DNA of 64,000 nucleotides from Halarcobacter sp. (GTDB lineage: Bacteria; Campylobacterota; Campylobacteria; Campylobacterales; Arcobacteraceae): contig CP182352.1 in NCBI GenBank assembly GCA_048571215.1, positions 3,392,001 to 3,456,000 of the forward strand, given 5' to 3'. The notes beneath the pieces are model-generated. The model did not search any database, was not told the origin of the DNA, and worked only from the letters and a program-made list of their open reading frames with translations. The position numbers and the translations under genes are program-made. The first letter of the stretch is position 1, and each line of letters opens with the position of its first letter. Below, one piece after another: positions 1,530-27,464 of the stretch.

Positions 1530-1531
1530 AA

Positions 1532-3264: not shown

Positions 3265-3458
3265 AAACTTCCTATAGATATTATAAATAACATTATAATA
3301 TATCATATGTTGAGTAAAATTATGGTTTTAGTGTGTAGCTTAGTGTAATCTCTTTTCATAATTTAAGATTTTTTATTGAAATTTATTATGTTATGTTGTT
3401 AGTTAGAAATTTTAAAATTGAAAAGTTTTTTAAGATGGCACTGACCCCCTAAATTCAG

Positions 3459-3612
3459 TTCCAAAGCTAATAATAACAAACTATTGTTATTATTTTAACG
3501 CTTTTCACATAAATTATCTCTTTAATTATATTTTATCTAAGTTCTTCTCAAAAGTGGAGATTCATTCACTGGGTGTTACTGTATTAATTATGTAAACTGT
3601 CCCCGGAATTTT
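3459..3612. repeat. ~154-bp cassette-junction repeat, copy 1
   Basis: Near-identical to 4656-4809; contains hairpin ataataacaa-acta-ttgttattat and ends in aactgtccccggaatttt. Confidence 0.9.
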
Positions 3613-3704
3613 TTATTTTATTTGAAATTTAATTGTGCCCGTCCCCTTTTCTCAGCTGGAACGAGAGAACTTGATTATGTTATTGTTATCACCTGACGCT
3701 TATT

Positions 3705-4352
3705 TTATTTTTGTTCTGATAAATCTCTTATTACTGACTTTAATGTACTTTGAGTTGCTATCGTTTTCTCATTTTTTAACGCTCTTTTCAAAATAGTTAG
3801 AACCTTTTGTTTATTTTTATTATCTACTAGAAAATATAAAAGATTAGCAGTTGCGGATCTTACTTGATACTCATCACACTCAAGAAAAGAAATAAAATCA
3901 TTAAAATATACTTTCTTTTTAAATCTGAGTAATGAATATAAGATTCTTAATTTTTCAGTATTTGTTGTATTTTTTTTCTTAAGTTTTTTTAGTAACAATG
4001 GTAAATACTTTTTTGCTTTTAAATTACCTATAGATTCATAAACGTATGCACGTACAAGGGTGTCCTCATCTTCTAATAAGTGTAATATATATTTTAAATA
4101 AGCTTTATTTTTGCTAGCACTAACAAGTTCAATAATAGAAATTTTAGTTAAATCATCTCCTTTTCTTAAAGATTCTTTTATTAATCTTTCTATGTTAAAT
4201 GACATTAGGGAAGTTATAGCATCAATACTATCTGCTCTTATTAGTATTTCATTACTACTTGTAAACTTTATTAATTTATCACGTAACTCCAATAGTTTAA
4301 TTAAGGTTTTTTCTATTTCTAATAATTTATTATTCAATTTTTTATTTTTCAA
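3705..4352 (-). CDS. HEAT-repeat protein, putative immunity protein of the orphan toxin
   Basis: LLEDEDTLVRAYVYESIGNL and FLECDEYQVRSATANLL HEAT-like repeats; directly downstream of the orphan toxin tip; TTG start with AGGA RBS. Confidence 0.6.
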   Translation of the reverse strand: MKNKKLNNKLLEIEKTLIKLLELRDKLIKFTSSNEILIRADSIDAITSLMSFNIERLIKESLRKGDDLTKISIIELVSASKNKAYLKYILHLLEDEDTLVRAYVYESIGNLKAKKYLPLLLKKLKKKNTTNTEKLRILYSLLRFKKKVYFNDFISFLECDEYQVRSATANLLYFLVDNKNKQKVLTILKRALKNEKTIATQSTLKSVIRDLSEQK

Positions 4353-4370
4353 AATCTTTTTCCTACAAAA

Positions 4371-4676
4371 TTATTTTTTTGCGCTACTATGTCTGTCTTG
4401 TAAAGCCTTTTGATGTTTTTTTATTCTTTGTTTCATCTTTTTAGATACATTAGGGTCTCTATACATCCTATCTAATTCTTCTTTACTATATCCTTCTAAC
4501 TCAGTGTCCCTAATATTTTGTTTACCACCTTTAGCATTATAAACATTAGGTAATTCACAATAAGAACCATTATTGGGCTTATAAACATTTTTATTCCATA
4601 AATAAGCAGAAAGAACTGCCCAGCCTTCAGTGGTGCTAAAGCACATCACTTTTAATTCCAAAGCTAATAATAACAA
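4371..4676 (-). pseudogene. Orphan RHS C-terminal toxin tip (resembles Ntox34-type helical toxin)
   Basis: GGKQNIRDTELEGYSKEELDRMYRDP...KQRIKKHQKALQDRHSS. The nominal TTG start falls inside the repeat, so the tip probably has no real start. Confidence 0.6.
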
Positions 4677-4809
4677 ACTATTGTTATTATCTTAACGCTT
4701 TTCACATAAATTATCTCTTTGATTATATTTTATTTAAAAAGTGGAGATTCATTCTCAGGGGTGTTATTGGTGTTACTGTATTAATTATGTAAACTGTCCC
4801 CGGAATTTT
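4656..4809. repeat. ~154-bp cassette-junction repeat, copy 2
   Basis: Direct repeat of 3459-3612; 4705-4728 is identical to RHS-core DNA at 5798-5821. Confidence 0.9.
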
Positions 4810-4817
4810 AATTTTAG

Positions 4818-5201
4818 CTATCCTTCAGAACTAATTATGAAATTTGCATCTTCATAAAGATTATATTCATCAAAATCAATATAGTTATGAGCTGGAGAAA
4901 ATGATATAGATAAAAAATATTCAATAATTTCTCTCCATAAATTAGCATCCAAGTTTATTGATACATTTAAACCCTCAATTTTATTCAAAATATTAGCATT
5001 ATTATTTGAACATAATAAGATATTCAATTCTTTAGTATCAATGTAATTAAGATTACTTAATTGAATTAAATTACCATTTTGTTCACCCAAAAAATATAAA
5101 TCTTTTATTAGTTTAATATAATCGTAAGGTTTTCCTCTCCATATAAAACTGGGAGGAGGTTCGCCATACGCATATTCATCAGTAAGTTCTATTGTTATCA
5201 T
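4818..5201 (-). CDS. Putative cognate immunity protein of the RHS toxin
   Basis: 127-aa acidic protein; its ATG directly abuts the RHS stop (TAAATG). Confidence 0.7.
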   Translation of the reverse strand: MITIELTDEYAYGEPPPSFIWRGKPYDYIKLIKDLYFLGEQNGNLIQLSNLNYIDTKELNILLCSNNNANILNKIEGLNVSINLDANLWREIIEYFLSISFSPAHNYIDFDEYNLYEDANFIISSEG

Positions 5202-8200
5202 TTATATCCATCCCATATTTAAATTATTCAAATAAATATTTTCCCATTTACTTTTACCATTATTCCCTCCTGGTTTATTATCCCAATGCCCTTTAGGATG
5301 ATATTTATCAGGTAAATGTGGTCTCCATTCTCCATTAGTATCATCATAGAGACTTTTTTCTCCTCTATTTTTAGGTTTGTTTTTTGAAGGATTACCTTCT
5401 TTACATTCACCATTAACTGGTGGCTTTGGCCAAGTAGAAGTGTCTGATAAATCAATACCTTCTCCTGACTCTATATCGCCAATTTGTATTATAGGATTAA
5501 TTGGCATTTTAGGAATAGTTATAGGTCTAGGTATAATCATTGGCCTAGTAATAACAAATGCATTTAACCCTTCAGGATCAATCCCATTAATAGGATCACC
5601 CAACACATACCCATAAAGATTAGTATCCCCACCACTAAAATCAATAGGATCCTTAGCAGTCCATTTCCCTGTGTAACTATCATAATCCCTATACCCAAAT
5701 CTAGTTAAACCAGTATCTGAATCATAAAGCCCACCTGCAAACCCAAATGGTACTTTAAAATCTGGATTTGAATCTTCTAGTATATTACCAAAGCTATCAT
5801 AAATTATCTCTTTGATTATATCATGATTAGAGTCAGATACTGCCCTTAAGCTTCCAACTTGGTCATAGTGTAAATAATATTTATTTGAACCTTGTGTCAT
5901 AGATATAGGCATTCTACTATTTGCGTATTCAAATCTTTGGACTAAATTATCATTTCCATCATATATAGCTAAAAGAGTTGTTAAATCAGCCCATAGGTAT
6001 TTTTCTACAACAACTCCATTTACAAGTTTTGCAACTCTTTGATTATTAGCATTATGTTTATAAGTAATAGTTTTAGAAGGTGTTTTTACCTCTTTTAACT
6101 CTCCCAAAGTAGAATAACTATAAGTAGTAGTTCCATTTGGCGTTACCTTTGAAGATAAATATCCATCTTCATCATAGGTATAAGTGTTATCTCCATATAC
6201 TTCTACTTGGTCATCTAAGGTATAGTATCCTGATGTTGTAACACCATTTACAGTTGCAGAGGTTCTATTTTCATTGTTATCATATGAATAAGTTTCTACT
6301 ATATTTCCATCTTTTTTTACTTCTATTAATCTTGCATTATCATCATAGGTATAGTCATATGTTTTTGTAGTATTGTTTACAGTTTCTTGTTTTTGTAAGA
6401 TTAAAGCTGAATTATCTTTTGAAATAATTTCATAACTAAAGCTATTATCTGCTACTTTTGTTAACTCTCCATAGTTATCATAACTTAGATTTTGAACAAA
6501 ATTTCCATCTGTAATTTTTGTAACATAGGCATTTTCTGCATCTCTTGTAAGAGTATAATCACCACTTGTTAAAACTAAACCATCATTATCATATGTATAG
6601 TTTTCAGTAATACCTGCATAAGTAAACGATATTGGTAAGAAATCATCATTATAGGTATAACTTAATCCTTCATTTAATACCCCATTATATGTTAATAAGC
6701 TTAATAAGTTTCCATCATAACCATATTCGATTTTTTCACTTCCTTTTGTAATAGTTCCTATTTGATTATTAAAAATATACTCATAGTTTATTGTAGCCTC
6801 AGGAGTTGTTGTAGAATCTAATCTATCATTTACATAGTTATTTACTATTGTTTTTCCACTTGGTCTTGTTATTTGGGTTAGTTTTCTATTTCCATTATAT
6901 TCATATAAAGTTTGTTTATTAAGCGCAGATTTCATAGAGGTTCTTTGACCTATATTATCATATGTAAAGTCGTGATTCGTAGAAATAGGAGTTATTAATC
7001 TAGTCATATTACCACTCACATCATAACTATATTCTTCTATTGCACCATTTGGATGAGTAACCCTTGTAACTCTATCTAATATGTCATATTGATATGAAGT
7101 TGTTTTTCCCCTTTCATCAGTGATAGTATCAATATTACCTCTACTATTATAAGTAAAACTTGTGGTTCTGGTACCAGTTGTTTGAGATATAACTCTTCCT
7201 TTATTATCATATGTATAAGTTGTAGGAGTTAAAGTACCTGAGGTTGAGCTTGTTGTAAGTCTTGTATTTATATCATACTCTTCCTTTGCAATTCTTCCTT
7301 CAGGAGTTGTAATAGTATTTATACCATTTTCATAATCATTTTTTATAGTAGTTGCTTTACCATTTGTTGTGATTGTTTGGGTTTTTGATGTTGTTAATCC
7401 ATTTTCATTAGTTTCATAAACTGCGCTATTACTTGTTACTTTACTTAAACTACTTGGAAGTATAGTTGTTACTGAATCAAGTACTCTTTTTTTTGTTTCT
7501 GGATCAGTTTTGTACTTACTTTGAATATTTATATTGTTCTTGATAGCATTTACTAATCTATTATCAGAAGATACTGTAATAGAATTACTATCTCCATTAG
7601 GGAAAACTGTTTCTTGTTTTAAAGAATCATTTTCTAATTTAATTTCTCTATAAAATTTAATATCTCCCTCAGGTTTACCTAAAGCATATTCAATAAATGC
7701 ATCACTTATATTCTTTTGTAAAAACCACTCTTCATTATTTACATCAATTTCCTTAATTATACGACCATTATCATCATATAAATTAAAAGAACTTGCTCCT
7801 GATGGCTCTGTATGTTTTGTAAGTAAAGAGTCATTATTATATTCAAATTGATGACTTGTATTATCTTCATATGTAACAGATAATAAATTTCCATTTGAAT
7901 CTACATTCAAATATGTTTTTTGACCATTTGGTGCAGTTATAATAGTTGGAATACCATTTTCATTTCTTCCTATTAAAATTTCATTATCAAACTGATTCTT
8001 AACACTAATCAACCTTTTATTTTCATCATGGGTAAAGCTTTTTAGAACCTTTTTTGAAAATAAGTCTATAGTTTCGATATGGTTTCCAGCTAAATTAAAC
8101 AACTCTGCTGTATTATTTGAGTTTATATTAATTATTCCATCTTCTATTTCATTATCTGTGAAGAAATTAGAGGTATAAATCCTATATAATTTATCATTTG

Positions 8201-11200
8201 ATGAAACTATTAAATCTTCATTATAATCTAATACAAGATTATTAGGATAACCAATTGAAGTATCAAGTGCATAACTATTATTTACTATAGAACCTGTAAT
8301 AGCATTTCCAGCATATGTTTCTATGTAACCATTTTCATTAACTTTTCTTATTACTTTATTTCCATAATCTAGTATAAATATATTACCTTTAGAATCAATA
8401 TCAATGTTTGAAGGACCATTTAATTTTGCATTAACTGCTAACCCTCCATCTCCTGAATAACCTGATTCTCCCGTACCAATAACAGTTGAAATAGTATTTA
8501 AAGTATCTACTTTTCTTATAACATTATTTATAGCATCAACTAAATATAAATTACCTTCACTATCAAGTTTTATGTCTCTTATAAAACCTATTTTAGCCTC
8601 TGTTGCTGAACCTCCATCCCCTGAATAACCTGATTCTCCTGTACCTACAATTGTTGAAATTATACCATCAGAATCTACTTTTCTAATAACATAATTATTT
8701 GAATCAATAAAATACAAACTGCCATCATTATCAATTTCAACTACACTGGGATGACTAATTTCTGCATTAATTGCTAGACCATTATCACCGGAATACCCAT
8801 ATGTACCAGTTCCTACAATTGTTCTTACTATACCATTCTCATCTATTTTTTTTATCTTATTAGCATACCTATCGACAATAAAAATTTCACCTTTTTCATT
8901 TACCTTTATATCCGAAATATCACTAAATGATGCATTTAATGCCAATCCCCCATCACCACTATCTTGACTTATACCATTTCCTGCAATATGACTAATCTCT
9001 CCTAAAGGATCAATCTTCAATATTTTACTATTATTATAATCTTGAGAAGCAACATAAGTATTTCCTCCAGATAAACTCACCAATGATGATTTCCAACTTC
9101 TATTATAACCAGAAACATTATTACTAAAAGCTTCAAAGTCGTATTCTATTTCCTCAATTTTTTGATTAAAAATTAAACTTTTATTATTTTCAGTTCCATC
9201 TCCTTTTTGAAGAGAGAAATGAAATATTTTATCATAATTTGATAATGTCCATCCATTTGAAATTGCATTTTCTTTATTAGCTTTATATTGACTATCTATT
9301 ATAAAAAACTTAAATGACTTTAGAATAAATTCTTTTCTTGAGAGAATCCCTGTTACCTCATTTCCAAACTTTGCCCATGCATTAATTGTCCCTTGTCTAC
9401 TAAGTCCTTTTTGATAAACTGCTTTATATAAATACTTTACTATTAACTTAGCTTTAACTTTTCCCGGAACATAATTACCTAGTTTATCTTTTCCATCCCA
9501 TGTAAATGTTGCATTTGTAGAAAACTCATCTAAAGTAAAACTTTTTTCCTGTCTTTTTCCAAATATGTCTAATATTAATATAATCTTTTTTACACTACTT
9601 GGAGGTTGAAGTTGATCTTTTAAATCAATAATATACTTATAACCTTTAGTTCTTTTTGAAGAATAATGTAAAGTCAGGTTTGTACCTGAAATTGGGATAT
9701 CATCATGAAAAGCTCCCGTTGTGGTTTCAACAAAAGAACTTATGTTAACACTTGCACAAGTTTCACTACATTTACCAAAAGTTTTTTTACAGTTTTCATT
9801 AAGTTTATTTTTATCTTTATCTGTAGTTATATCGTTAATTTTAGGTCTTTCAACATTTTTATCAGGTACCCAAGGATAATTAGGATCCCAAGGAGTAAAG
9901 TGATTGATTTCCATTCTAGAATATGTTTTACCTACTTGGTAAACTATATTATCTTCTAATCCAATAACTTCACTTGTAAAAGTTCCATCATTATCTAAAT
10001 CATTTGGTTGTCCATCACCTGTTGAGTCTAAAGCATCTACAGTTCCATCATTATTTGTATCAAGTAGTTGTACAACAACACCATTTTTTGAACCTTTCCA
10101 TACACTTTCATTTCTATCATAATATCCTACAGGAACTACTACTCCAACATCAAACCCTAAAAAATTATCTACATACATGATAACAGGAGAGTTAAACTCA
10201 ACTGTTTCATCATCACTTACTCCATCTACTGTAAGATCAGAGCAATATGTATATGCTGATTCTTTTGGTAAATTTGCAGGCATTGACTCTGGCGTTTTAA
10301 ACTCTGTTGCTCTTACATCTATAGTGTCTAAAATTCTTGTTGAACCATCAGGAGATTTAACTGTTGCACTTGAAACTCCGTTAAATACTAAAGTAGTTGA
10401 CCTTGAACCTCTATCGTCACTAATAATTGATGAAGTGTGAACTTGCGGAGTTGAATCATTTAAATCTATTGTTGTAACTTTATCATCTATTCTTAACATT
10501 GTTACATCATCAACAATGTTCCAATTTGAAGCCTCTGCAAAAAGCTTTCTATCTATTGTGGTATATCCATTTTTTGTATATCTTACAATAATTGTTTTAT
10601 TTCCTTCTACTGGTAATACATAACTTCCATTTAGGTCTGTTTGAACAGTTCCAAGCTCTTCATTATAAACAATACTAATGGTTACATTAGATAAAGGATT
10701 TCCACTTTCATCATAAATATTTCCAGTAATCATAGAAAAAAGATTTTCACTATAAAATTCTTTTGTTGCATTAACTGGAATTTGATCTATATACTTTGTA
10801 CCAAAATGTGTAAAATTAAAATTTGTTGTTGCAGGTTTATCCACTACTTTTACTGGGATTAAAGCTGAAGTTATATCTCCTGATATTATCTTTAAAGTTG
10901 TTTCTCCTATTTGTAAACCAGTAAAAGTATCTACACCATCAAAAGAAACAATACTAGTATCTGCTATTTCATAAGTAAAATTTCCATTAATAGGTTTTAT
11001 AGAACCATCACTATATATTCCTTGTATGGATATTTGCTTATCATTATTTACTCTTAAAGTTATTGGATTTGGAGTTATTTTTATTGAATCTAAAACTAAA
11101 GGTTTTTTAACTTTTATAGTTACATCATTTGATTGAATTGTATCAATAGTTGCTTTTAAAGTTGTAATTCCTTCTTTTAATGATGTAATTGTTCCTGCAT

Positions 11201-12239
11201 TATCAACTGAAGCTATGGTATTATCTGCAATAGTCCAAGTAACATTTGAAGATAAATCTAATGAAGTCTCGTCACTGTAATATCCAGTAGCAACTATATT
11301 TTCTGTTTCTCCGATAGTTAAGCTTAGTTCATTTGGAGTTAGTTCTATGGAGTTTAATACAGCTTGAACTGTTATTGAAACCTCTTTTGTACTTGTTTGT
11401 CCATCATTGTCTGTTACAGTTAATGTAATAGTATATTCCCCTTGGGTATTAAATACATATGAGAATGTTTTTTCAGATGCTAATATATTAGAATTTTGAT
11501 CAGTCCAAAGATAGCTTACTATCTCCCCATCTTCATCCCTTGATAAGCTTGCATCAAAGCTAATTGATTCTCCAATTAAAATAGTAGTTGCACTTACTTG
11601 AAAATCTGCAATAGGTTTTATATAATCTATAACTTCAATATCAACAGTTGAAGATGAACTTAATCCATCATCATCTGTTACAGTTAATGTAATAGTATGT
11701 ATTCCAATACTTGTAAAAGTATAATCAAATATTTGATTACTGCTTAATATATCTCCATTATTATCTGTCCAACTATATGAGACAATATTACCATCACTAT
11801 CTGACGATGAAGAAGCATCAAAGGTTATTGAATCATTTATTTTTATCTTTGTATTATTTGTTTGTATTATTGCTTGAGGTGGTGTGTCGTTTGAAGTTTG
11901 GGGTTTTACTAAAATTTCAATTGTATCACTAGATTTTAAAGGAGAAATATAACCTCCTTTTTCTGTAGTTGTTAATTCAAAAATAAGTTTGGTGTCTTTT
12001 TTCACTACAGGAGCTATAAAACTTGCATTTATTGTGTTTTTATTTAAAAGTTTTACTTTTTTACCAAAAACTTGTTTCCATTTATATTTTTCTATTTTCC
12101 CACCAACTTCAGTGGTACTCAAACTTCCATTTAACACTACAGGTGAAGAAGATTCAACCACTTTATCTTTACCTGCATCTGCACATCCTGTAAAAAGTAT
12201 TGCAAATAAAAGCATCAAACTAAAATACAAAGATTTCAT
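5202..12239 (-). CDS. Teneurin-like RHS/YD-repeat lipoprotein toxin (PKD, Ig-like, NHL, YD shell, RHS core, C-terminal toxin)
   Basis: Lipobox LFTGC; two PKD domains (FDASxSxDxDGxIVSYxW...TLTVTDDDG); Ig-like repeats; NHL repeats (GYSGDGGLA); YD repeats; RHS core GYRDYD...[28 protein letters not shown]; 121-aa tip. Confidence 0.92.
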   Translation of the reverse strand: [2345 protein letters not shown]

Positions 12240-12462
12240 GAGTATCCTTAGATAATAAATATAGAGTTTTATTATTACTATATAATCTTTTATATTTCCT
12301 TAAATTCATTATAAAATTAATATTTAACACTAATTTTGAAAATTAATTTGTAGTGGGAATAGATTTTCTTGTCTAATGGGTTTTAAAAATGTAACTAATA
12401 GTTTAATTAAAAATTAAGAAATAATTAATAATAATATTATAAATTTAAAAAAGGAGAATAGT

Positions 12463-12684
12463 ATGCCAAAAGAGACAAAAGAAGTAAGTGAAACAATTGT
12501 AATTAACAATGGAAATGAAGAGGTTTTTGAGTTTTTAGGCAATGTGATTCAAGAAGCACAAGCAACAGGTAGTATTGTACAAATTATTACGATATATCCT
12601 TCAGTTGATAATTTAGATGATTCTGGTGATGTAATAAAAGGTTGTAAACCAAAAGCTGACCATTGCCCTAAAGGTGCTTATTGA
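12463..12684 (+). CDS. Putative RiPP precursor peptide
   Basis: 73 aa with strong AAGGAGA RBS; acidic leader-like region and C-terminal GCKPKADHCPKGAY; ends 6 bp before a rSAM/SPASM gene. Confidence 0.7.
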   Translation: MPKETKEVSETIVINNGNEEVFEFLGNVIQEAQATGSIVQIITIYPSVDNLDDSGDVIKGCKPKADHCPKGAY

Positions 12685-12690
12685 TATATA

Positions 12691-13920
12691 ATGAGAATAA
12701 AAAATCATATAAAAGTTCTTAAGGGTAAGAATCGTTTTGCAGTTTATAATCTAAAAAATGGAACCTGCGAACCTGCAACTAAAATAGAGATTGAATTGCT
12801 TAGATTAATCTCTATAAGGAAAACCCTTACCCCTAAGAAAGCTAATATCAAAAATTTATGGTTTCACTTATCTTCTATGAGAAAAAAAGGTTGGTTAGAA
12901 GCTGGAAAAGCTCAAGTTTATCTTCTTGATTTAGAGATTAAAAAAATAGATAATTCCAATAATAAAACTTTTGAAAGAGTTTGGATTGAACCCACTTTAT
13001 CTTGTAACTTCTCTTGTAATCACTGTTATGCAATGTCCAATAATAAAGTAAATCGTGATAATGAATTAGATGAAAATCAATGGATAAACATCTTACAAAA
13101 AGTTTTAGTTTATGATATAAAGTATATTACCTTTATTGGTGGAGAACCAATGATTAGAAAAGATTTAATAAAATCTTTAGTGATATATATAAAAGAAAAT
13201 TCTCCTAATATTAAAGTTGGCATTTTTTCTAATTTATACAACATAATAGATGCTGATATTCAATTTATAATTGAGCATAATTTAGGTGTATCTACTTCTT
13301 TATATGGAATAGAAGCTAATGAACATGATAAAATGACTAACAAAGTTGGTTCCTGGGTTCGAACAGTAGAAGTGATTAAAAAACTGACAAAAAATAATAT
13401 AAATGTATTTGTTGGTTACTTTAAAAACAATAAAGAAATCACAAACTTAACTATCAAGTCATTTCTCAACAGTTTAGGAGTTACATCTTTTGATATCCAA
13501 AATCATCATAATGTAGGAAGAGCTATACAAAAAGCGCCTATAAAAGTTTCAAAAGACAATATATTGCCTTTAAAAATGTCATTTAATCCTAACACTATTT
13601 CAAAGTATAGTAGTGAACATAATTGTTTTTCTAATCATATATCAATATCTTCAAATGGAGATGTAATGGGTTGTATTATGATGAGAAAGCCTGAATATGG
13701 AAACTTACTTAGTGATTCACTTGACAAAATATTAAGTAGTAAAAATTATATTCAACTTTCAAAATTAACAAAAGATAAAATAGAAGGTTGCTCTGAATGC
13801 GAATTTAGATATGGATGTTTTGACTGTAGAGCAGGTGCAATGAGTGACTCTAATAATCTTTTTAAAAAACCAGATTGTGGCTATGATCCAAGATTAGTAT
13901 TAAGTTTTGAAAATGACTAA
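12691..13920 (+). CDS. Radical SAM/SPASM-domain peptide maturase
   Basis: CNFSCNHC (CxxxCxxC), IGGEP, SPASM cysteines C...GDVMGC...CSECEFRYGCFDCR...C; ~90-aa N-terminal extension (possible RRE). Confidence 0.92.
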   Translation: MRIKNHIKVLKGKNRFAVYNLKNGTCEPATKIEIELLRLISIRKTLTPKKANIKNLWFHLSSMRKKGWLEAGKAQVYLLDLEIKKIDNSNNKTFERVWIEPTLSCNFSCNHCYAMSNNKVNRDNELDENQWINILQKVLVYDIKYITFIGGEPMIRKDLIKSLVIYIKENSPNIKVGIFSNLYNIIDADIQFIIEHNLGVSTSLYGIEANEHDKMTNKVGSWVRTVEVIKKLTKNNINVFVGYFKNNKEITNLTIKSFLNSLGVTSFDIQNHHNVGRAIQKAPIKVSKDNILPLKMSFNPNTISKYSSEHNCFSNHISISSNGDVMGCIMMRKPEYGNLLSDSLDKILSSKNYIQLSKLTKDKIEGCSECEFRYGCFDCRAGAMSDSNNLFKKPDCGYDPRLVLSFEND

Positions 13921-14584
13921 TGAAACTTTTTTAAATATAATGTTTGAAGTTGAAACAAAAGGTTTCTGTGATTTAGGGGTTATTAAAAATTTTGATTTAT
14001 TAAAATTTGCATATAAAATTGGCAAACCAATTCCAATCTTACCAGATGAACCTAAATTAGGTTTAGTAGGTGCAAGAAGTCTTTCATCAAATCTTTCTAG
14101 TAATGAATACGCAACAATTTATAAAGAAAATATACCTTTTCATACTGATGCAGCCTATTATAAAATTCCCCCAAAGTATTTAATACTTAGATTAAAGAAA
14201 ACATCTTTGTCTAATCGCAATACGACTGTAAAAAAATTGTTTACAAATCTCTCTCAAGAGATAGTTGATATTTTAAGCAAATCTCTTTGGAAAGTTAGAA
14301 GTCCAAATGGTAGATATTTTATAGGAAAAATTATTGAAAGAAGAAATAATGATTTTTTTATTAGATATGATTCAAATTCAATGGTACCTTATTTCAAAAA
14401 AAATCAATATTCAAGGGAAGTATTAGAAGGAGTATTAGATAAGATACAAACTTTTGAGATAACTTGGGAGCCTGAAAAAATTGTTATATTAAATAATTGG
14501 AAAGTACTTCATGGTAACAGCAAAGTTATAAATGATATTGACTCTTCGAATAGAATTTTAGAAAGAGTTTTGGTTGAAGTTTGA
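13913..14584 (+). CDS. TauD/TfdA-family Fe(II)/2-oxoglutarate dioxygenase
   Basis: PFHTDAAYY (HxD), LNNWKVLHG (distal His), RILER; ATG at 13913 overlaps the rSAM stop (ATGACTAA). Confidence 0.8.
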   Translation: MTNETFLNIMFEVETKGFCDLGVIKNFDLLKFAYKIGKPIPILPDEPKLGLVGARSLSSNLSSNEYATIYKENIPFHTDAAYYKIPPKYLILRLKKTSLSNRNTTVKKLFTNLSQEIVDILSKSLWKVRSPNGRYFIGKIIERRNNDFFIRYDSNSMVPYFKKNQYSREVLEGVLDKIQTFEITWEPEKIVILNNWKVLHGNSKVINDIDSSNRILERVLVEV

Positions 14585-14805: not shown

Positions 14806-17673
14806 TTATACTTTTTTGATATAAGAAATTAATATATCACGTACTTTAGGGTCTACATGGTTATTTTCAATCAAGTTTTTTATACTACGGTGATATTGTT
14901 TATCAATTTCATAGTATTTTTTGATGCGTAGTGGGTCTTGAATTAAAAAAGTATTGGATATCAAAAAATCTAGAATATTATGTTTTTTATTTAGGAATTT
15001 AGGTGTTATAGTAATATTTTCCATAAGTTTCGCTTCAAAAGCTACACCATTAAAAAAGTTTCTACAAAATTTTTGAAAGTCTTCTTCAAAGGCTTTTAGT
15101 TTATCTTGGAAACTTGATTCTTGATTATCTATATAATGTTGAATTGTATCAAGCGTACAGCTATCTAAATCAAAGTTTTCTTTGCTAATACTACAATTTT
15201 GAATTTCAATGTCTACAAATAAGCTGTGATAAAAAATTGTGTTTTCAAACTTACATTTACTAAAAGAATTATATTCATGGAATTCAGAACTCCAAATTTG
15301 GATATTAGAAAAGTCTAGCGGATAAAACTCACCCCAAATGTAGAAGTGTTTTATTTCACTGTTAGAATATAAACTTTTTACAATTTCTATTCTTTTATCT
15401 TTTGACAAATTTGTACCATGTATTTTTTGCGTGAAGTAAAGTAAAGTACTAATTGTATGTTTCAACTTTAAAAGATTTTTATCTTCTTTATTAATTTCTA
15501 GAATAATTAAATTAATAACTCTTTTCGTATTTTTAATACACAAAGGAATATTTTTGGAAAAGTACTTTATACACTCATTTAAAACTATATGACTACCATC
15601 ATAGTATTTAGATAAGTCATTGATTATTTGCTTATCAAGTAGTTTAATCTCATCACTCGAAAAATAATCAATAATTGCTAATGTCTTGAAATAGTTACCT
15701 AAAAAATCATATTTAAAATATAAGACCTCTAATGAATTGTTGACTTTTACTAAAGGATTCAATAAAATCTTTTTATAAATTTCATTTGTATCATTCCCAT
15801 CAAAGGATATTTCAATTAAATCTTTTAAATTATCAAATGAAAGTTTATCTCCATATGACATTACTAGTTCTTTAAAGAATGCAACAAATTTAGTTACTGG
15901 TATATTAAATTGTTGTCTTTTTATTTCTCTTTTTAATATAGCATGTATTAAATAATCTATGGGTTCACAGTTACTTGGGTAGTCACTATTGATTGAATCA
16001 ATAATAAATGAATTTTTTTCAACTTTTATTTCTTCTTCAACTATTTCAGATATTAAATCGAGAAAGAAAGGAAGTAAAACTTTTTCACTATTATCAGATA
16101 TCGTTAGCAAAGATGTTATGTATTTATTTATTTTTTTTAAGTAAACATCTGTATTTGGGTATTTAGAAAATCTTTTTTCAATATACTTATTCCAAATATC
16201 TTCTTCAAATCCTTTGAGATAAAAGATTTCTGTTTCATCGTTTTCTTTTAAATAGGCATAGTTTTCTAAAATATTAAGTCTAGAAGTAATCATAATTTTT
16301 GTTTTCCCCAATTGCATATTTAATTCATAAAGGGAGTTTAAAAATTCTTTTACATTAAAGTTCTCGTGAAATAATGTAATGATTTCATCAAGTCCATCAA
16401 TTATGACTATGATTTTGCCAGAAATGATTCCTAATTCGAATTGTTTTTGCGTTAATAGAGACTTATTTGTAATTAAAATTTTTTCATAAATGTCATAAAG
16501 TTCATATAGATTTTTAATTTCAAAGTTTCTAATCGCATCCTTCTTGATATGATTTCTTATGATATCTGATTGTATTAATAATGCTTTTTTCTCATTATAA
16601 TCATTTATTTCATTTGTTAATACCTGTGATAATGTACTTTTCCCCATCCCACCTGCTGCAAATAGCATTAAAGTAGAATGTATTGTATTATCAGATAAGA
16701 ATTTATCTTTAATAAGAGGTAAGGATAATTCTAAGGTTCTTTTATCCCCCATTTCATCTTCTTGGTACACTCTTTGATCTATAAAGAACTCTTCTTCTAT
16801 AATTTTATTTTCATTTTTCCAATCTTGGTCAATACACTCATCCCAAATAAATTGTTCAATTGTAAATTCTGCAATATTAATATTTATGTCATGAGCTTGA
16901 AATATTTTATAGATATAATCTTTTTCACCTTGACTAGTTCTAAGGATTACAAGGTTTTTTGTAATTCTGTGTTTATTAATTCGTATAAATCTTTCAATTG
17001 TATCTCGTATAGTAATATTGTTGAATAACACTAGGATAAATGAATTTGAATTAAAGCTGGTGGTTTTCCAATACTCATATTTGATTCTATTTTTATCTTT
17101 AAAGTCTGTTACTCCATCAAGTTTTTCTCTTTTTTTAGCAATTATTGCCAAAATATCTTCTACTCTATCAAATTGAAAATAATTAACAGGTGTATTTTTT
17201 AATGATTTAGTTTTTGGAGGTCTTGATGAAGTTTGATTCATAGTATTTTTTATTTGTTTGATTAGGTAACTAAGGCTCTTGTTATATTTATCATCATTTT
17301 GAAAAGAAATAGATATTTTACCTTTTAAGTAATTTGGAGTGGAAATATACCTGTCTTCTCGCATAATTGCAAAGATATTACTTGTTTGTTTATTTTCCAT
17401 CTCTTCCCAGTGTCTGATAGTATTCATAAATGTTTCTATTCCAACTCCACCTAGTCGGTTATTCGCTTTATATGCATATTCTTTTGTACAAACTACTAAT
17501 ATTAAATCGCTTTCAAATATACCTTTTTCCATGAAATGATTTTTATCAATATTATGATTTAAATCGTATTGATCTAGTATGATGTGAAATTCACTATATG
17601 CTTCTAAATCATCTGCTAATTTTTTTACCCACTCTTGATTTTCCCAATTGTAACTTATAAAAATTTTATACAT
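14806..17673 (-). CDS. TIR/SEFIR-NACHT NTPase, probable anti-phage STAND protein
   Basis: N-terminal KIFISYNW...WVKKLADDL...GGVGIE (TIR/SEFIR); Walker A AAGGMGKST; Walker B IVIIDGLDE; ITSR sensor; pentapeptide-like tail. Confidence 0.85.
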   Translation of the reverse strand: MYKIFISYNWENQEWVKKLADDLEAYSEFHIILDQYDLNHNIDKNHFMEKGIFESDLILVVCTKEYAYKANNRLGGVGIETFMNTIRHWEEMENKQTSNIFAIMREDRYISTPNYLKGKISISFQNDDKYNKSLSYLIKQIKNTMNQTSSRPPKTKSLKNTPVNYFQFDRVEDILAIIAKKREKLDGVTDFKDKNRIKYEYWKTTSFNSNSFILVLFNNITIRDTIERFIRINKHRITKNLVILRTSQGEKDYIYKIFQAHDININIAEFTIEQFIWDECIDQDWKNENKIIEEEFFIDQRVYQEDEMGDKRTLELSLPLIKDKFLSDNTIHSTLMLFAAGGMGKSTLSQVLTNEINDYNEKKALLIQSDIIRNHIKKDAIRNFEIKNLYELYDIYEKILITNKSLLTQKQFELGIISGKIIVIIDGLDEIITLFHENFNVKEFLNSLYELNMQLGKTKIMITSRLNILENYAYLKENDETEIFYLKGFEEDIWNKYIEKRFSKYPNTDVYLKKINKYITSLLTISDNSEKVLLPFFLDLISEIVEEEIKVEKNSFIIDSINSDYPSNCEPIDYLIHAILKREIKRQQFNIPVTKFVAFFKELVMSYGDKLSFDNLKDLIEISFDGNDTNEIYKKILLNPLVKVNNSLEVLYFKYDFLGNYFKTLAIIDYFSSDEIKLLDKQIINDLSKYYDGSHIVLNECIKYFSKNIPLCIKNTKRVINLIILEINKEDKNLLKLKHTISTLLYFTQKIHGTNLSKDKRIEIVKSLYSNSEIKHFYIWGEFYPLDFSNIQIWSSEFHEYNSFSKCKFENTIFYHSLFVDIEIQNCSISKENFDLDSCTLDTIQHYIDNQESSFQDKLKAFEEDFQKFCRNFFNGVAFEAKLMENITITPKFLNKKHNILDFLISNTFLIQDPLRIKKYYEIDKQYHRSIKNLIENNHVDPKVRDILISYIKKV

Positions 17674-17949: not shown

Positions 17950-19596
17950 GTGTCAAAAAGTATTGAAAATGTTGTAAAAATAGATATATCTCCTGAAATG
18001 TCAATTTATAACACATTAAAAAATCATTCTTATAGTTTGGGTGGCGCTTTATCTGAATATATTGACAACTCTTTACAGTCTTTTATTGATAATGAAAAAG
18101 AACTAAAAACAAAAAAATTAAAGATAACAATTACAATAGATGATAAAGATATTAATGATAGAAAAATTATTATTGAAGATAATGCAGGTGGAATAAGTCA
18201 TAAAAATTTAGATCGTGCTATGAAACCTGCATATAAGCCCGAAAAACAAAATCTTAATGAGTTTGGAATAGGTATGAAAGCAGCTTCTCTTTGGATAGGT
18301 AGAAAATGGACTTTATTTAATCACTATTTGCATAGAAAAAATAAAAGTGAATCTGAGAAAATTTTATTTGATCTTGATGAACTTATTGAAAATAATGAGA
18401 CTTTAGTTCCAATAAGTCCTATTGCAAGTAATGATAATAAAAATGGTGTTACTATTATTATAGAAAGATTAAATAGAGATTTCGATAAAGAACTAATTGA
18501 AGATGCCTTTTGTAGTTTAATAGAAAATTATCAATATTTTATTTATAGAAGTAAGATATTAGATTTAAATCTAGTCTCTACAAAGTACGATGATTTAAAG
18601 ATTACACCAGAAGAAGAGGTAGAAATTCCTAATGTTTTAAAATCACGTAAAATGATAACAAAAGGTACTAGTTCATATTGGGGAGGGAACGAAGTAAAAG
18701 AATGGAGGCAGGATGTAGATTTTTTCTTTAATGAAAAACGTGTTACAGGTTTTGTTATGTGTAGAGAACCATCTAACCAAAAAAATCCTGGACTAAAGTA
18801 TTTTAGGGAAAAACGTTTAATTCAAGGTACTTATAGAAATTGGAATAGACCAATATATTTACTTAAAACTCCAAATAAACATGATTCATTAAGGTTTTAT
18901 GCAGAATTACACCTTGATGGACAACCGATATCAAATAACAAAGATAAATTAGATATAAATGAAAAAAAATTTTTAGATACCTTAAAATCACAATCTGGAG
19001 TTGATGAGATTCTTGAACAAGCAAAAGATTATAGACCTAGATCAATAAAACAAGCAAATCAGTACGAAAAAGAGGGGGTTACTCCTAAATCAAGAGGTAA
19101 GGGAAATCAGAAAAATAGTACAGTAGGTTCTAAAGATAACATTAAATCACAAATAAAAGAAAAACAACCTATTAATTTATTAGATTTAATTATTAAAAGT
19201 ACTGAAAACTTAGTTACACAAAGCATTGCAAAAGAAGCAAAGAAATTGTATGGAACAAGTGATTTGGGTTTTTTACTTTGTTATCGAGCCATTATGGAAA
19301 AAGTAGTGCAAGAAAAAATAAAAGGATTAATTTCCAATGAGGAATTTAAAAAGAGTAATATTTCAGATAAATCAATTAATAAATTAATTACTTGGCTTAA
19401 TAACAATAAAAATAATTTACCTTTTGAGGGTGAGTGGCAATCTGTTAAACGAAATTTGCAACATTTTGATAAAGAAAAAGTTTTTGATGTTACAAATATT
19501 GTTATTCATGCTCATTATCACCCAACAACAAATGATGTTAATAACCTTTTAATTAATAGCCAGAAGCTTTTAGAGTGGGCATTATCTCAGGAATAG
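17950..19596 (+). CDS. MORC-like GHKL ATPase with C-terminal HEPN-like domain
   Basis: EYIDNS, DNAGGI and FGIGMKAA GHKL motifs; C-terminal helical region with CYRAIMEK...NIVIHAH. Confidence 0.75.
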   Translation: MSKSIENVVKIDISPEMSIYNTLKNHSYSLGGALSEYIDNSLQSFIDNEKELKTKKLKITITIDDKDINDRKIIIEDNAGGISHKNLDRAMKPAYKPEKQNLNEFGIGMKAASLWIGRKWTLFNHYLHRKNKSESEKILFDLDELIENNETLVPISPIASNDNKNGVTIIIERLNRDFDKELIEDAFCSLIENYQYFIYRSKILDLNLVSTKYDDLKITPEEEVEIPNVLKSRKMITKGTSSYWGGNEVKEWRQDVDFFFNEKRVTGFVMCREPSNQKNPGLKYFREKRLIQGTYRNWNRPIYLLKTPNKHDSLRFYAELHLDGQPISNNKDKLDINEKKFLDTLKSQSGVDEILEQAKDYRPRSIKQANQYEKEGVTPKSRGKGNQKNSTVGSKDNIKSQIKEKQPINLLDLIIKSTENLVTQSIAKEAKKLYGTSDLGFLLCYRAIMEKVVQEKIKGLISNEEFKKSNISDKSINKLITWLNNNKNNLPFEGEWQSVKRNLQHFDKEKVFDVTNIVIHAHYHPTTNDVNNLLINSQKLLEWALSQE

Positions 19597-20863
19597 TATT
19601 TTCAGCAATCATTTGAATAACCGTTGAGTTAACGGCATTTCCTAAAGCTTTAAATGCAGTTGATCTCGCACGTGGTAATTCCTTTAGGTTATGTAGACCC
19701 TGTAAACAAGCTGCTTCTTTGCTGTTTAAATATCTTTTTTCCAAGCCTAAAATTGGTATTTGAGTAGTTGTCATTGATATCAAAGAGGGAGCTGAGTTAG
19801 CTCTAATTATTCTAATACCAGAAGCTCTAAATTGTATTAGATGTTCCCATAGATTTTTTTTAGATAAACTTCTATCACTTTGCCATTGAAGTTTTTGCCA
19901 GCTTTGAGGAGAGGCTTTTAATTCTTTAATAAAAGGATTAAATGTATTAGGAGAACTATTATAAATTTCTCTACTAGATGCTAATGAAGTTGATATCCAT
20001 TTAACAGGTTTTTTCATTTTTCTATCAATATAGTGAGGTAAGAGTTCAAAAATCTCATTCCATGTTTTACATTTACTTAATGGAACTCCCCATGCACCTT
20101 TGTATCTTTTCATCTCATTTAATGTTAATTTACTAAACTCAATAGGATAATTTGCTCCAAACTCACTAGATACAATGTAATGCCCCGTTAAACTAGGAAT
20201 ATTAGAAATAATTGATTGCCATGTATTTAAAATTTTTTCTTTTCTGTCTTCAAGCTTTTTTTCATTTTCATTAGATAATTCAAAGTTATTAAAATATTTA
20301 AGAATATGATCACTAGAATTTTCTGAAGAAACCTCTGGCCATTTTATTTTGGCAGTATTATTTTGTTTTTTTGCAATAATAAATATTCTTTTTCTTTTTT
20401 GTGGGATATTAAAATCAACGGGAGAATATATTTTATCTTCTAAATAATAGCCTATTTTAGAAAATGATTCATTCAAGTAATTCCAAAAACTACCATTATC
20501 AATTGTTTTGATATTAGGAACATTTTCTAAAAAAATCATTTCAGGAGTGTGATGTTTTGCTATTCGTATTACATCATCTATTAGTTTTCCAGAAGTAGGG
20601 CATTTAGCACCCTTTTGCATGCCTGCTATTGAAAAGGGCTGACAAGGAAAGCCTGCACATAAAATATCATGTTCAGGAATGTCTTTTTCCTTTACTTTTC
20701 TAATATCTCCCTCTGGTTTTATTCCGTAATTTTTTTCATACAATTCTCGTAAATGATTTTCAAGTTCACAAGCAAATACACATTCCATTCCTAGTGAATG
20801 AAGTGCATTATGAAAACCTCCAAGACCTGCAAATAAATCAATAAATTTAAGCTTTTCTCCCAT
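19553..20863 (-). CDS. dcm: DNA (cytosine-5)-methyltransferase
   Basis: DLFAGLGG, GFPCQPFS, ENV, QKRKR and ALGNAV motifs. Confidence 0.95.
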   Translation of the reverse strand: MGEKLKFIDLFAGLGGFHNALHSLGMECVFACELENHLRELYEKNYGIKPEGDIRKVKEKDIPEHDILCAGFPCQPFSIAGMQKGAKCPTSGKLIDDVIRIAKHHTPEMIFLENVPNIKTIDNGSFWNYLNESFSKIGYYLEDKIYSPVDFNIPQKRKRIFIIAKKQNNTAKIKWPEVSSENSSDHILKYFNNFELSNENEKKLEDRKEKILNTWQSIISNIPSLTGHYIVSSEFGANYPIEFSKLTLNEMKRYKGAWGVPLSKCKTWNEIFELLPHYIDRKMKKPVKWISTSLASSREIYNSSPNTFNPFIKELKASPQSWQKLQWQSDRSLSKKNLWEHLIQFRASGIRIIRANSAPSLISMTTTQIPILGLEKRYLNSKEAACLQGLHNLKELPRARSTAFKALGNAVNSTVIQMIAENTIPEIMPTLKASGY

Positions 20864-21043: not shown

Positions 21044-21712
21044 ATGCTAGAAGATTATATTAAATTTCCACAACGCAAAATAAAAAAGAGCTATCGTTCT
21101 GTCATTGGGCATTTCCCTAGTATAAAAAATGGTAAATCAATAATCTATGAGTCACTATTGGAAAGAGCCTTATATCTATCTTTGGAATTTGATGATAGTG
21201 TTTTTGCATATTATGAACAGCCTCAAATTGAAATTGATTTTAAAAATAGACATTCAACATATAGCTTAGATTGCTATATCCGAAGAGTAAAAGAATCAGG
21301 GGTTAAAGATACGATTATTGAAGTAAAATATTCAAATGAACTTGAAAAAAATAAAGAATACTTTGAAGAAAAATTTGAAGATACGAAAGTGTTTGCGAAA
21401 GAACATGATTTAGAATTTGATGTATTTACTGAACTTTCATATAGCAAAGAATATATAGAAAATTTAGACTTTTTATATAGGTATAAAGAAAATCCAATAG
21501 AACATAAATATGAAAAAGAGATATTGGATGTTCTTAAAGACACTACAAAATTAGCTGCATTTGATTTAGTGCAAAAACTTACATCTAATCCAAAAGAATA
21601 TGCAATAGTTTCTAATAACATTTGGTCATTAGTTTCAACTGGTAAATTAAAGACAGATTTATTTGCTAATGAGTTTACTATGAATTCTTTAGTGGAGTTA
21701 AACAATGGCTAA
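21044..21712 (+). CDS. tnsA: TnsA-like transposase endonuclease subunit
   Basis: YESLLER, LEFDDSV..YYEQP, D...IEVKY PD-(D/E)xK core; stop overlaps the tnsB start. Confidence 0.9.
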   Translation: MLEDYIKFPQRKIKKSYRSVIGHFPSIKNGKSIIYESLLERALYLSLEFDDSVFAYYEQPQIEIDFKNRHSTYSLDCYIRRVKESGVKDTIIEVKYSNELEKNKEYFEEKFEDTKVFAKEHDLEFDVFTELSYSKEYIENLDFLYRYKENPIEHKYEKEILDVLKDTTKLAAFDLVQKLTSNPKEYAIVSNNIWSLVSTGKLKTDLFANEFTMNSLVELNNG

Positions 21713-23591
21713 TGTAATTTCCTTTGATATTGATAGTAAAATTTTTTACCAAGATGTAGAATATATTATAAAAGGATATCCCTCTTTAGAGGAAGTACTC
21801 CTCAAAAAATTAAATAAACCATATAATGAAAAAATTGTAAAAGTCAATGATTTAATTAGTGACCCTAAAAATATAAAAAAGAGAACAAAAGAATTAGTTG
21901 ATACTGAACAAAAAGAATTAGATAAAGCAACTGAACGATTTAAGATTATTGAACCTTTATTAGACATTGAAAATAGAACAGCAAAAGATGTTCAAAAAGT
22001 TGCAAAGAAAAATAAAAAAGGTATTGCCACAATATATAGATGGCTTAATACTTATGAGCAATACAAAACTGTAAGTTCACTAGCTTCTAGAAGAGAATTT
22101 TGTGGAGGTAAAGGAAAAAGTAGATTAGACGAATCTGTTGATACAATAATCAATAGTGTAATAGAAGAGATGTATTTACATAAACAACAATATCCCCTGC
22201 AAGATATCTATGAAGAGATTGTTTATAAATGCCAGAATATAGAACTAAAAGCACCCACAAAAAATACGATAAGAAATAGAATAAATGCTTTACATCCAAA
22301 AATTATTGCAAAATATAGAAATGGAATAAGAGTAAATGAAACTAGAGGAATGCCAAATAAATTTCCAGATGTGAAAATGCCTTTAGACATTATTCAAATT
22401 GATCATACTAAAGTTGATGTTATTTTGGTTGATGAAGAAAATAGAGAACCAATTGGAAGACCTTTTATTACTGTTGCAATTGATGTATATAGTAGGATGA
22501 TGTATGGCTTCTATATCTCTTTAGAAGCCCCTAGTTATTTTAGTGTAGGGCAATGTTTATTAAATGCAATTTTACCAAAGGATGAATTATTAGCAAAATA
22601 TAAAGTTGAGGGAGAATACCCTGTTTATGGATTGCCTAGAAAGGTACATATGGACAACGGTAAGGACTTTACTTCAATTAGTTTACGTAATTTTTGTCAA
22701 GAATTTAGAATAGAAGATCGCTATCGTCCAGTTGCTAGACCTGAGTTTGGTGGTGCAGTAGAAAGAGTTTTAGGCACATATATGAAAAAGATGCATTCCT
22801 TGCCAGGTACAACTAGATCTAATATATTTAAAAGAGGAAGTTACGATTCTGAGATAGAAGCTGCTATGACTATTGATGAACTTGAAGAATGGTATTTGGA
22901 TTTTGTAATAAATGTTTATCATAAAACTGAACATAGCTCAATATTTATGACACCTGAAGAGAAATTTTATCAAGGTTTATATGGCGTCGGAAAAGAAAAG
23001 TCTATCCCGTTTTTGCCTACAGTTCCAACAAATACTTTAAAGCTTAGAATGGCATTACTTCCTCAAATAAAACGTAGTGTTCAAAAAAATGGTATCACTA
23101 TTGATTATATTACTTATTTTTCAGAATCTTTGAGAAAATGGATTATTCCATCTCAATATAAAAAATTAAAACCTAATTTAAAAAATGAAGTTATTTGTAG
23201 ACGTGACCCAAGGGATATTAGTAAAATATATGTATATGATGAAGATATTAAAGATTATATCACTGTTCCATATGCAGATATTAGAAAACCTAAAATGAAC
23301 TTATCTGAGCTTAGAGAGGCAATTTCGGAAGCAAAAAAGCAAATAACAGGAAGAGAACTTGAACCTCATGATATTTTTGAAGCAAAAGAGAGACTTCGAC
23401 AAAGGGTTGAATCTGCAAAAAGAGAAAAAAAATCTGTAAGACGTAAAAGAAGTTCTAAAAAGCATCAAGAAAAAATTTTAAATATGGAAAAAGAGAGAAT
23501 TGATTATAAAGAGACCAAACCTACACCTTTAAAAATATCCCAAGCACAGGATGAAGATGAGGAAGGTTATGATATATATCCTATAGGTTGA
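21705..23591 (+). CDS. tnsB: TnsB/TniA DDE transposase
   Basis: HTH ATIYRW; QIDHT, HMDNGKDF and GAVER catalytic motifs; DPRDISKIYV (Mu transposase C-terminal). Confidence 0.93.
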   Translation: MANVISFDIDSKIFYQDVEYIIKGYPSLEEVLLKKLNKPYNEKIVKVNDLISDPKNIKKRTKELVDTEQKELDKATERFKIIEPLLDIENRTAKDVQKVAKKNKKGIATIYRWLNTYEQYKTVSSLASRREFCGGKGKSRLDESVDTIINSVIEEMYLHKQQYPLQDIYEEIVYKCQNIELKAPTKNTIRNRINALHPKIIAKYRNGIRVNETRGMPNKFPDVKMPLDIIQIDHTKVDVILVDEENREPIGRPFITVAIDVYSRMMYGFYISLEAPSYFSVGQCLLNAILPKDELLAKYKVEGEYPVYGLPRKVHMDNGKDFTSISLRNFCQEFRIEDRYRPVARPEFGGAVERVLGTYMKKMHSLPGTTRSNIFKRGSYDSEIEAAMTIDELEEWYLDFVINVYHKTEHSSIFMTPEEKFYQGLYGVGKEKSIPFLPTVPTNTLKLRMALLPQIKRSVQKNGITIDYITYFSESLRKWIIPSQYKKLKPNLKNEVICRRDPRDISKIYVYDEDIKDYITVPYADIRKPKMNLSELREAISEAKKQITGRELEPHDIFEAKERLRQRVESAKREKKSVRRKRSSKKHQEKILNMEKERIDYKETKPTPLKISQAQDEDEEGYDIYPIG

Positions 23592-23596
23592 AATAG

Positions 23597-24466: not shown

Positions 24467-24467
24467 T

Positions 24468-25640: not shown

Positions 25641-25642
25641 TC

Positions 25643-27340: not shown

Positions 27341-27356
27341 GTTAGTTTAAACTCCC

Positions 27357-27424
27357 ATTATCAAATTTTATTTGACATATTATCACTTTTTATTTCCTAT
27401 TATCATTTTTTTTTGCTTTTGACA
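27357..27424 (-). repeat. Inner transposon end (TGT plus three putative TnsB sites)
   Basis: Minus strand TGTCAAAAG-CAAAAAAAAATGATAAT-AGG-AAATAAAAAGTGATAAT-ATGTC-AAATAAAATTTGATAAT. Confidence 0.85.
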
Positions 27425-27448
27425 AATGATACTTTTACCTTTAGACAT
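27425..27448 (-). pseudogene. 8-codon remnant of a second tnsE-like gene
   Basis: ATGTCTAAAGGTAAAAGTATCATT (MSKGKSII): same peptide as the intact gene start but with synonymous changes; interrupted by the inner end. Confidence 0.8.
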
Positions 27449-27464
27449 ATTAAATTAAACTTCC

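Follow-up and report, generated by a model that had tools for sequence, protein, structure and literature searches.

We analysed a 64,000-nucleotide stretch of the Halarcobacter sp. genome (assembly GCA_048571215.1, contig CP182352.1, positions 3,392,001 to 3,456,000 of the forward strand), here called the window, in which three adjacent plus-strand genes form a compact cassette. The first encodes a 73-residue peptide (12463..12684), the second a 409-residue radical S-adenosylmethionine (rSAM) enzyme with a SPASM domain (12691..13920), and the third a small TauD/clavaminate-synthase-like Fe(II)/2-oxoglutarate (2OG) oxygenase (13913..14584; 223 residues from its ATG, or 225 from a start at 13907, from which its residue numbers are counted below). 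An initial annotation, made from the sequence of the window, had proposed a tightly coupled operon, and all of the signals it named are present: a Shine-Dalgarno site, AGGAGA, upstream of the peptide gene (12452..12457), a gap of 6 bp between the peptide and rSAM genes, and an overlap of 8 nt between the oxygenase ATG at 13913 and the rSAM stop. Purine-rich sites also lie 5′ of the peptide genes at four related loci (L085, L086, L087 and L091). The GC content of the cassette is 27.2%, compared with 28.5% for the host genome. A promoter scan performed at chance level (26 vs 20.7 ± 5.2), and a terminator scan returned 0 terminators. As had been noted, no peptidase or exporter adjoins the cassette within the window. 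Contigs from a second study contain the cassette at ~98% identity.

The peptide and its two enzymes

A fixed leader, a near-constant spacer and a core able to multiply is the layout expected of the precursor of a peptide made by ribosomes and modified post-translationally (a RiPP). In an alignment of 29 precursors, close copies included, G36, P46, C61 and P63 of the window peptide are invariant (29/29). The conserved leader motif runs from G36 to P46 (12568..12600), after a Q-[ED]-A-Q-A stretch, and probably forms a beta-strand read by the RiPP recognition element (RRE) of the rSAM enzyme. The leader Pro is separated from the first Cys-x-Pro (CxP) unit by 13–16 residues in 24 of the 29 sequences. 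The core motif of the window peptide is C61-x-P63-x4-C68-P69-K70 (12643..12672); C-x-P is found in every precursor, and 25 of the 29 end in C-x-P-x(3-4)-C-P-K, with six residues between the Cys residues in 20 and five in 5. A stop codon directly follows CPK in 17 of these 25 two-Cys cores. In three precursors CxP is repeated 3, 4 or 5 times, whereas another contains just one CxP and lacks a second Cys, and these single-Cys and repeat forms are without CPK; their existence suggests that CxP is the unit acted on by the enzyme.

The only Cys and His residues of the peptide do lie within its last 14 residues, as initially described. The Cys and Pro part of that tail is conserved, as Cys-x-Pro and a C-terminal CPK, and the His part is not. 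With His in only 4 of 25 cores, we rejected it as a functional residue. Ratios of nonsynonymous to synonymous substitution (dN/dS) were 0.06 against the L085 gene and 0.23 between L085 and L086, the other two of four pairs being saturated, which places the precursor gene under purifying selection. It matched no family in NCBIfam or Pfam, and all 29 precursors together gave only 7 scattered weak Pfam matches, each found in no more than 2 of the precursors.

The rSAM and SPASM assignments are borne out by Pfam matches above cut-off (PF04055, 61 bits; PF13186, 35 bits). The CxxxCxxC motif (C105, C109 and C112; 13003..13026) is invariant in 41/41 sequences of the family defined below. Seven Cys of the SPASM domain (13624..13878; residues 312, 328, 367, 370, 376, 379 and 396, with CX2CX5CX2C spacing) are present in 41/41 family sequences and in 38/38 of a wider CxP group, with no conserved eighth Cys. 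The published seven-Cys motif, given in the accessible sections of PMC6231123 as CX9-15GX4C..CX2CX5CX3C..C, is found here with CX2C in place of CX3C. According to the same sections, CteB has an open site on auxiliary cluster I to which a substrate Cys binds, and ligation is complete in anSME and SuiB. The seven Cys suggest an open iron site like that of thioether-forming enzymes, which favours sulfur chemistry, although the invariant H310 could act as a ligand there. dN/dS values of the gene are 0.12–0.15. On one contig (run X4) it has single-base deletions at 12882 and 13097 that do not occur in run X3 of the same sample; these are probably assembly errors and the source of a short database entry, P0002, with which the contig agrees in length.

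An AlphaFold2 model of the enzyme (mean pLDDT 87.6; 88–97 per block over residues 1–80) supports the RRE that had been raised as a possibility: the N-terminal domain (12691..12900) has three strands and three helices. The profile of the enzyme aligns to residues 18–218 of the CteB chain (5wgg/5why), and no PqqD match was found in it with Pfam. Top Foldseek matches of the model were SuiB, CteB (template modelling (TM) score 0.61), SkfB, TigE and anSME, and SkfB is the closest solved structure by sequence (E 7.8e-28). A predicted complex of enzyme and precursor (score 0.02, mark 0.32) weighs neither way. No cut-off was reached among the best 25 of 79 NCBIfam families (top score 83 bits), and a match to a characterised family was not found there.

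The third protein matches PF02668 at 38 bits against a cut-off of 27, and H79, D81, H202 and R216 are invariant in 6/6 oxygenases, in agreement with the HxD...H enzyme first annotated. Its double-stranded beta-helix fold matches those of AAD-1, KDO1, AsnO, OrfP and clavaminate synthase, and its structural matches include Lys, Arg and Asn hydroxylases. dN/dS values are 0.14–0.21, with one of four pairs saturated. Since TauD-like relatives of solved structure have small-molecule substrates, free amino acids among them, the small open reading frame (ORF) might instead be an accessory subunit or a leader peptide, with the two enzymes making a small molecule. The RRE-like domain, the succession of conserved leader, variable spacer and conserved core, the expansion of cores to tandem repeats within the family, and the peptide maturases among the best folds all argue against this, and we consider it very improbable. 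That the TauD-like enzyme acts on the peptide is, in our judgement, highly probable.

Conservation and relatives of the cassette

A protein search returned 52 rSAM relatives at E ≤ 1e-20. Of 80 metagenome loci examined, 11 (L085–L094 and L105) form the close family, with 37–63% rSAM identity. Two of these contigs end at or inside the rSAM gene (L090 and L093) and two begin inside it (L094 and L105). The precursor gene lies directly upstream of the rSAM gene at 9/9 family loci with upstream DNA, and the TauD gene directly downstream at 9/9 with downstream DNA, which answers the check proposed with the initial annotation, that both should recur beside rSAM homologues. Because L087–L089 and L093 are one lineage and L091–L092 another, these amount to about six independent cases besides the window. 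A TauD profile had no match in the other 149 of loci L005–L164. The peptide, the RRE-rSAM-SPASM enzyme and the TauD-like oxygenase are confirmed as one coupled unit.

A profile of 7 precursors, run against 1.84 billion proteins, returned 26 representatives, of which 25 belong to the family and one is an unrelated 2967-residue protein. For 13 of 26 non-self precursor clusters, the longest contig has the same size as that of an rSAM match, an indirect sign of linkage. Source labels of relatives include Spartinivicinus poritis, Rhodopseudomonas palustris, Candidatus Thiodiazotropha and Sphingomonas crusticola, and one TauD relative is labelled Burkholderia pseudomallei. The cassette was found in 0/400 genomes of the order, 0/400 of the phylum and 0/24 of the genus, and no close member turned up when 201 and 301 genomes were sampled in the vicinity of two others. 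A scan of genome contigs showed no close member among the matches listed (best 32%), viral contigs yielded none, and plasmids had no match at 1e-30, with one partial 30% match to a second query. The module is rare and patchily distributed, and frequently lies close to mobile DNA.

Related rSAM enzymes, ~30% identical to that of the family, are also accompanied by CxP peptides. Among the 160 loci L005–L164, with near-duplicates and short contigs kept in the counts, an ORF with at least three CxP lies near the rSAM gene in sense at 37/71 loci and in antisense at 2/71 where the rSAM match scores 190–400 bits. The corresponding counts are 4/32 and 1/32 at 100–190 bits, and 3/48 and 3/48 for distant rSAMs below 100 bits. 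Eleven CxP peptides or fusions of this wider group were compared with NCBIfam and matched no precursor family. In a FastTree tree of 149 sequences, rooted with 22 distant ones, the close family is one branch (41 sequences, SH support 100) and all 38 CxP-labelled sequences fall within an 86-sequence branch (support 93), together with 27 loci bearing no label, 8 distant ones and 13 proteins that lack context; the sister relation of the two branches depends on rooting by the 22 distant sequences.

Several residues are common to the two groups: I149 (40/41 in the family, 33/38 in the CxP group), F/Y179 (all), and Y205 (39/41 and 34/38), which is Asp in 21/22 of the distant sequences; D378, Y398 and P400 are also common to both, unlike the 22 distant enzymes. 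W98, E100 and the CEFRY stretch are shared partly by construction, having served as search patterns. The groups have in common CxP cores, the seven-Cys SPASM with CX2CX5CX2C and active-site residues. They differ in that the family has its own branch and leader, mostly one CxP plus CPK, Thr147 (41/41, against Gln in 38/38 of the CxP group) and the TauD partner, which matched at no other locus. Judged by these sequence characters, the family belongs, as a single branch, to a wider group of rSAMs with CxP peptides, a placement that refines the initial reading. We found no published name for the wider group; one CxP-rich sequence is listed in the accessible part of PMC10288494 under 'Other Uncharacterized' group 68.

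The wider group is varied. At L144 (6747–9005) and L146 (7076–9217), CxP repeats are fused N-terminally to proteins of 713–752 residues encoded directly after the rSAM gene, with weak M12-type metallopeptidase and TPR matches, giving a precursor-peptidase fusion. At L117, L124, L137, L141, L152, L157 and others, precursors of 43–58 residues with four CxP units precede two tandem rSAM/SPASM genes; several of these loci come from gut metagenome contigs, and the enzymes and two precursors tested had no NCBIfam family. L154 (7234–7593), downstream of an rSAM gene of the CxP group, encodes a 119-residue precursor that has nine CxP units and a leader that we take to be of Nif11 type from its appearance. 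Related rSAMs at L101, L102, L107, L113 and L133 occur with another precursor type, in which, at L107 and L133, one or two CxP are combined with a leader that is basic and twin-Arg-like; an NTP_transf_5 gene lies near the L107 rSAM gene.

Proposed chemistry

By analogy, the best reading is that the cassette would work like a thioether-forming maturase system. On balance we think it probable that the rSAM enzyme links Cys through a thioether at CxP, with Pro as the simplest partner, and that the oxygenase then hydroxylates the C-terminal ring. The RRE would bind the conserved leader strand; the enzyme would cleave SAM and take a hydrogen from within the C-x-P unit, and the resulting carbon would be joined to the Cys sulfur held on the open iron of auxiliary cluster I, with a change of −2 Da per event. 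Pro is the only fixed partner within the unit, and a Cys(i)-Pro(i+2) link is therefore the simplest; that the invariant Pro is in fact the partner, closing a three-residue Cys-Pro ring, is a serious prospect that we place a little below even. The TauD-like enzyme would oxidise the C-terminal ring, most likely by Pro or Lys hydroxylation at the CPK end (+16 Da). Given that the cassette brings neither a protease nor an exporter of its own, its product is probably either retained inside the cell, leader attached, or shortened by proteases of the host. The initial annotation had named cyclophane crosslinks as well as thioethers; a cyclophane product was rejected as unlikely, the aligned cores being without a conserved aromatic residue.

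Several observations weigh against this proposal. H310 is invariant and could occupy the fourth iron site. At six catalytic-site positions chosen after the accessible text of PMC10288494 (Y113, I149, S180, S203, I329 and M330), the residues are Y,I,S,S,I,M in this enzyme and F,F,T,S,H,Q in CteB, a match at 1/6, so that it is no CteB-type ranthisynthase. The second Cys, in CPK, is outside any CxP unit and its fate is unexplained, and the invariant Pro can be a turn determinant instead of an acceptor. The structural matches of the oxygenase are 13–21% identical to it and do not name its substrate. In favour of the proposal, the four-repeat CxP precursor of L090, a family member, is divergent from a gene (541–1638, minus strand) of the 2OG-FeII_Oxy_3 family, which we take to be prolyl-4-hydroxylase-like, with a weak C39-peptidase-like region. 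It is the sole such match among the loci examined. On the other side, because L090 ends 21 bp after the rSAM gene, this oxygenase may add to the TauD enzyme and not replace it.

The same thioether chemistry could be directed to another acceptor, a sub-case of the reading we favour. The acceptor would be the alpha-carbon of variable residue i+1 or i+3, a Lys, or the other Cys across the C-x5/6-C loop, with Pro only shaping the turn, and the product would have a new sactipeptide or ranthipeptide topology. Alpha-carbon acceptors can vary, SkfB, the best sequence match among solved structures, is a sactisynthase, Lys follows CxP in 15/25 two-Cys cores, and CPK is fixed in 25/25. Set against this, positions i+1 and i+3 vary freely, with 9 and 5 residue types respectively, in contrast to Pro, which every repeat keeps, and the single-Cys and repeat forms do without CPK. 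We regard another acceptor as a minority possibility, though an appreciable one.

An oxidation of the anSME kind would give no cross-link: abstraction of a Cys beta-hydrogen would lead through a thioaldehyde to formylglycine, an enethiol or an azole. anSME structures match the model at TM 0.51–0.55. Asp after the auxiliary-cluster Cys acts as a base in anSME, and Ile329 sits at this place here; the enzyme is further set apart by its RRE-like domain and small peptide partner. Type 1 sulfatases have the motif CXPXR (accessible text of PMC13638132), which shares C-x-P with the precursors, of which 0/29 have Arg at +4. Nor does the enzyme have the eighth SPASM Cys, whereas anSME is fully ligated (accessible sections of PMC6231123). 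Such an oxidation is, in our view, distinctly unlikely.

Genomic setting, possible role and comparison with known systems

In the window, an Rhs gene flanks the cassette in head-to-head orientation and, tail to tail on the other side, there is a TIR/SEFIR-NACHT gene, beyond which lie a HATPase and cytosine methylase pair and then tnsA, tnsB, tniB and tniQ. The second-study contigs stop at 14805, with sparse cover over the TIR-NACHT gene, and none spans that place or the Rhs junction. The regions 3454–5829 and 5202–12239 (minus strand) hold the gene of the 2345-residue Rhs protein, which has PKD, Ig, NHL and YD repeats, and, following it, small ORFs together with stretches of 87 and 41 nt that recur 1197 nt apart, resembling orphan toxin-tip/immunity cassettes; the 5′ part has a 71% relative in G406. 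The TIR/SEFIR-NACHT protein (14806–17673, minus strand; PADLOC bSEFIR, 120 bits) is likely an antiphage STAND protein. At 17950–20863, a HATPase gene (MORC/MzaB-like) and a C5 cytosine methylase gene converge, their ends overlapping, and form a restriction-like pair. The Tn7/Tn5053-like genes (21044–27532) include, besides tnsA, tnsB, tniB and tniQ, a 565-residue ORF with no Pfam or PADLOC match. A TGT-type right end at 27532, with three TGATAAT repeats and duplicated 108 bp inwards, overlaps the last codons of a gene read as gidA/mnmG-like (27518–29389), whose 3′ end is possibly the target of the transposon. No left end with TGATAAT repeats was found in the window or in the 60 kb upstream.

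Enzyme-matured peptides can be antiphage, as described for the ribosomal product of HXS (accessible sections of PMC13128918) and for lanthivirins (accessible sections of 10.64898/2026.08.26.747419), which makes a defence role plausible here. PADLOC matched no specific model in the cassette, only generic viperin-like rSAMs, and this counts against defence. About six independent neighbourhoods are readable, too few for a test of enrichment in defence islands. From context, we put forward a conflict or antiphage role tentatively and with some doubt.

The product could as well have no part in defence and be a peptide for metal binding, redox reactions or signalling, or else a bacteriocin relying on proteases and exporters of the host; we judge this quite possible, if short of probable. 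At L085 and L086 the three genes, with no others beside them, are flanked by a MutS-domain gene on one side and by a threonine dehydratase-type gene on the other, a housekeeping setting that speaks against defence. At L088 an S8 peptidase gene lies ~1.8 kb downstream of the cassette, past an insertion sequence (IS), and CxP peptides of the wider group are fused to the M12-type peptidases of L144 and L146; none of the family loci examined showed an exporter beside the cassette. Against a non-defence function stand the very patchy spread reported above and a set of neighbours that fits mobile conflict cargo: Rep3 and ParA at L093, the IS at L088, an integrase remnant with large ORFs of no known function at L092, and Rhs, TIR-NACHT and Tn7-like genes in the window.

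No published description of the family was found in the open-licence literature, outside which most subscription journals lie, or in the searchable supplements of two rSAM surveys; the leader motif occurs neither in the 3,421 rows of the PMC10288494 precursor sheet nor in the searchable supplements of PMC9062424. The accessible text of the latter describes another uncharacterised rSAM and Fe/2OG cluster, with a different (YNR/HNR) core. Taken together, the sequence comparisons support a real, rare and apparently undescribed branch of rSAM-SPASM RiPP systems that belongs to no named family. The initial proposal of a two-enzyme RiPP cassette outside the named families is upheld by the conserved small ORF and TauD gene, the RRE in the model and the lack of an NCBIfam equivalog.

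The cassette offers a minimal three-gene entry to an rSAM group with Cys-x-Pro substrates, whose chemistry we did not find described. A Cys-Pro thioether, if present, would be a new cross-link and a compact peptide-cyclisation tool, a TauD-type oxygenase that modifies a ribosomal peptide would extend the known set of RiPP tailoring enzymes, and a product working inside the cell would stand beside HXS and the lanthivirins among the enzyme-matured peptides of phage defence. Were the link an ordinary sactionine, the family would be new but of modest interest. The boldest combination is a long shot: that this is the first known Cys-to-Pro cross-linking rSAM, of a new RiPP class spanning the CxP-repeat peptides, with TauD oxidising the CPK end and a leader-bearing product acting intracellularly against phages or mobile DNA.

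Among known systems, CteA/CteB, SkfA/SkfB, AlbA, StsB and PapB share the RRE-rSAM-SPASM architecture and a Cys-bearing C-terminal core. The rSAM enzyme described here scores 76 of 625 and 72 of 300 cut-off bits against the StsB and SkfB families, and the cassette differs from sactipeptide and ranthipeptide systems in its CxP core, its TauD partner and its lack of a protease or exporter. With grasp-with-spasm systems (TIGR04193), in which an ATP-grasp neighbour is expected, it shares a similar C-terminal SPASM stretch (E 3e-20); the score is 73 against a cut-off of 175, the rSAM domain is intact here, and no ATP-grasp ligase adjoins. anSME and AtsB are likewise SPASM rSAMs whose substrate motif starts with C-x-P, and the present system is unlike them in having no Arg at +4, no eighth Cys and no sulfatase neighbour, and in its RRE-like domain. 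Seven SPASM Cys are also found in CteB and AlbA (accessible sections of PMC6231123). HXS (HxsA–D) is similar in having an rSAM-matured ribosomal product and provides the precedent for defence, but it employs two rSAMs, HxS repeats and an effector in the periplasm that carries a peptidoglycan-binding domain (accessible sections of PMC13128918), none of which occurs here; scores against the HxsB and HxsC families are 66 of 370 and 52 of 268 cut-off bits. CAS, KDO1, OrfP, VioC, AsnO and GntD resemble the oxygenase in fold, HxD...H triad and conserved Arg, whereas the enzyme of the cassette is ~100 residues shorter, shares 13–21% identity with them and is tied to a ribosomal peptide.

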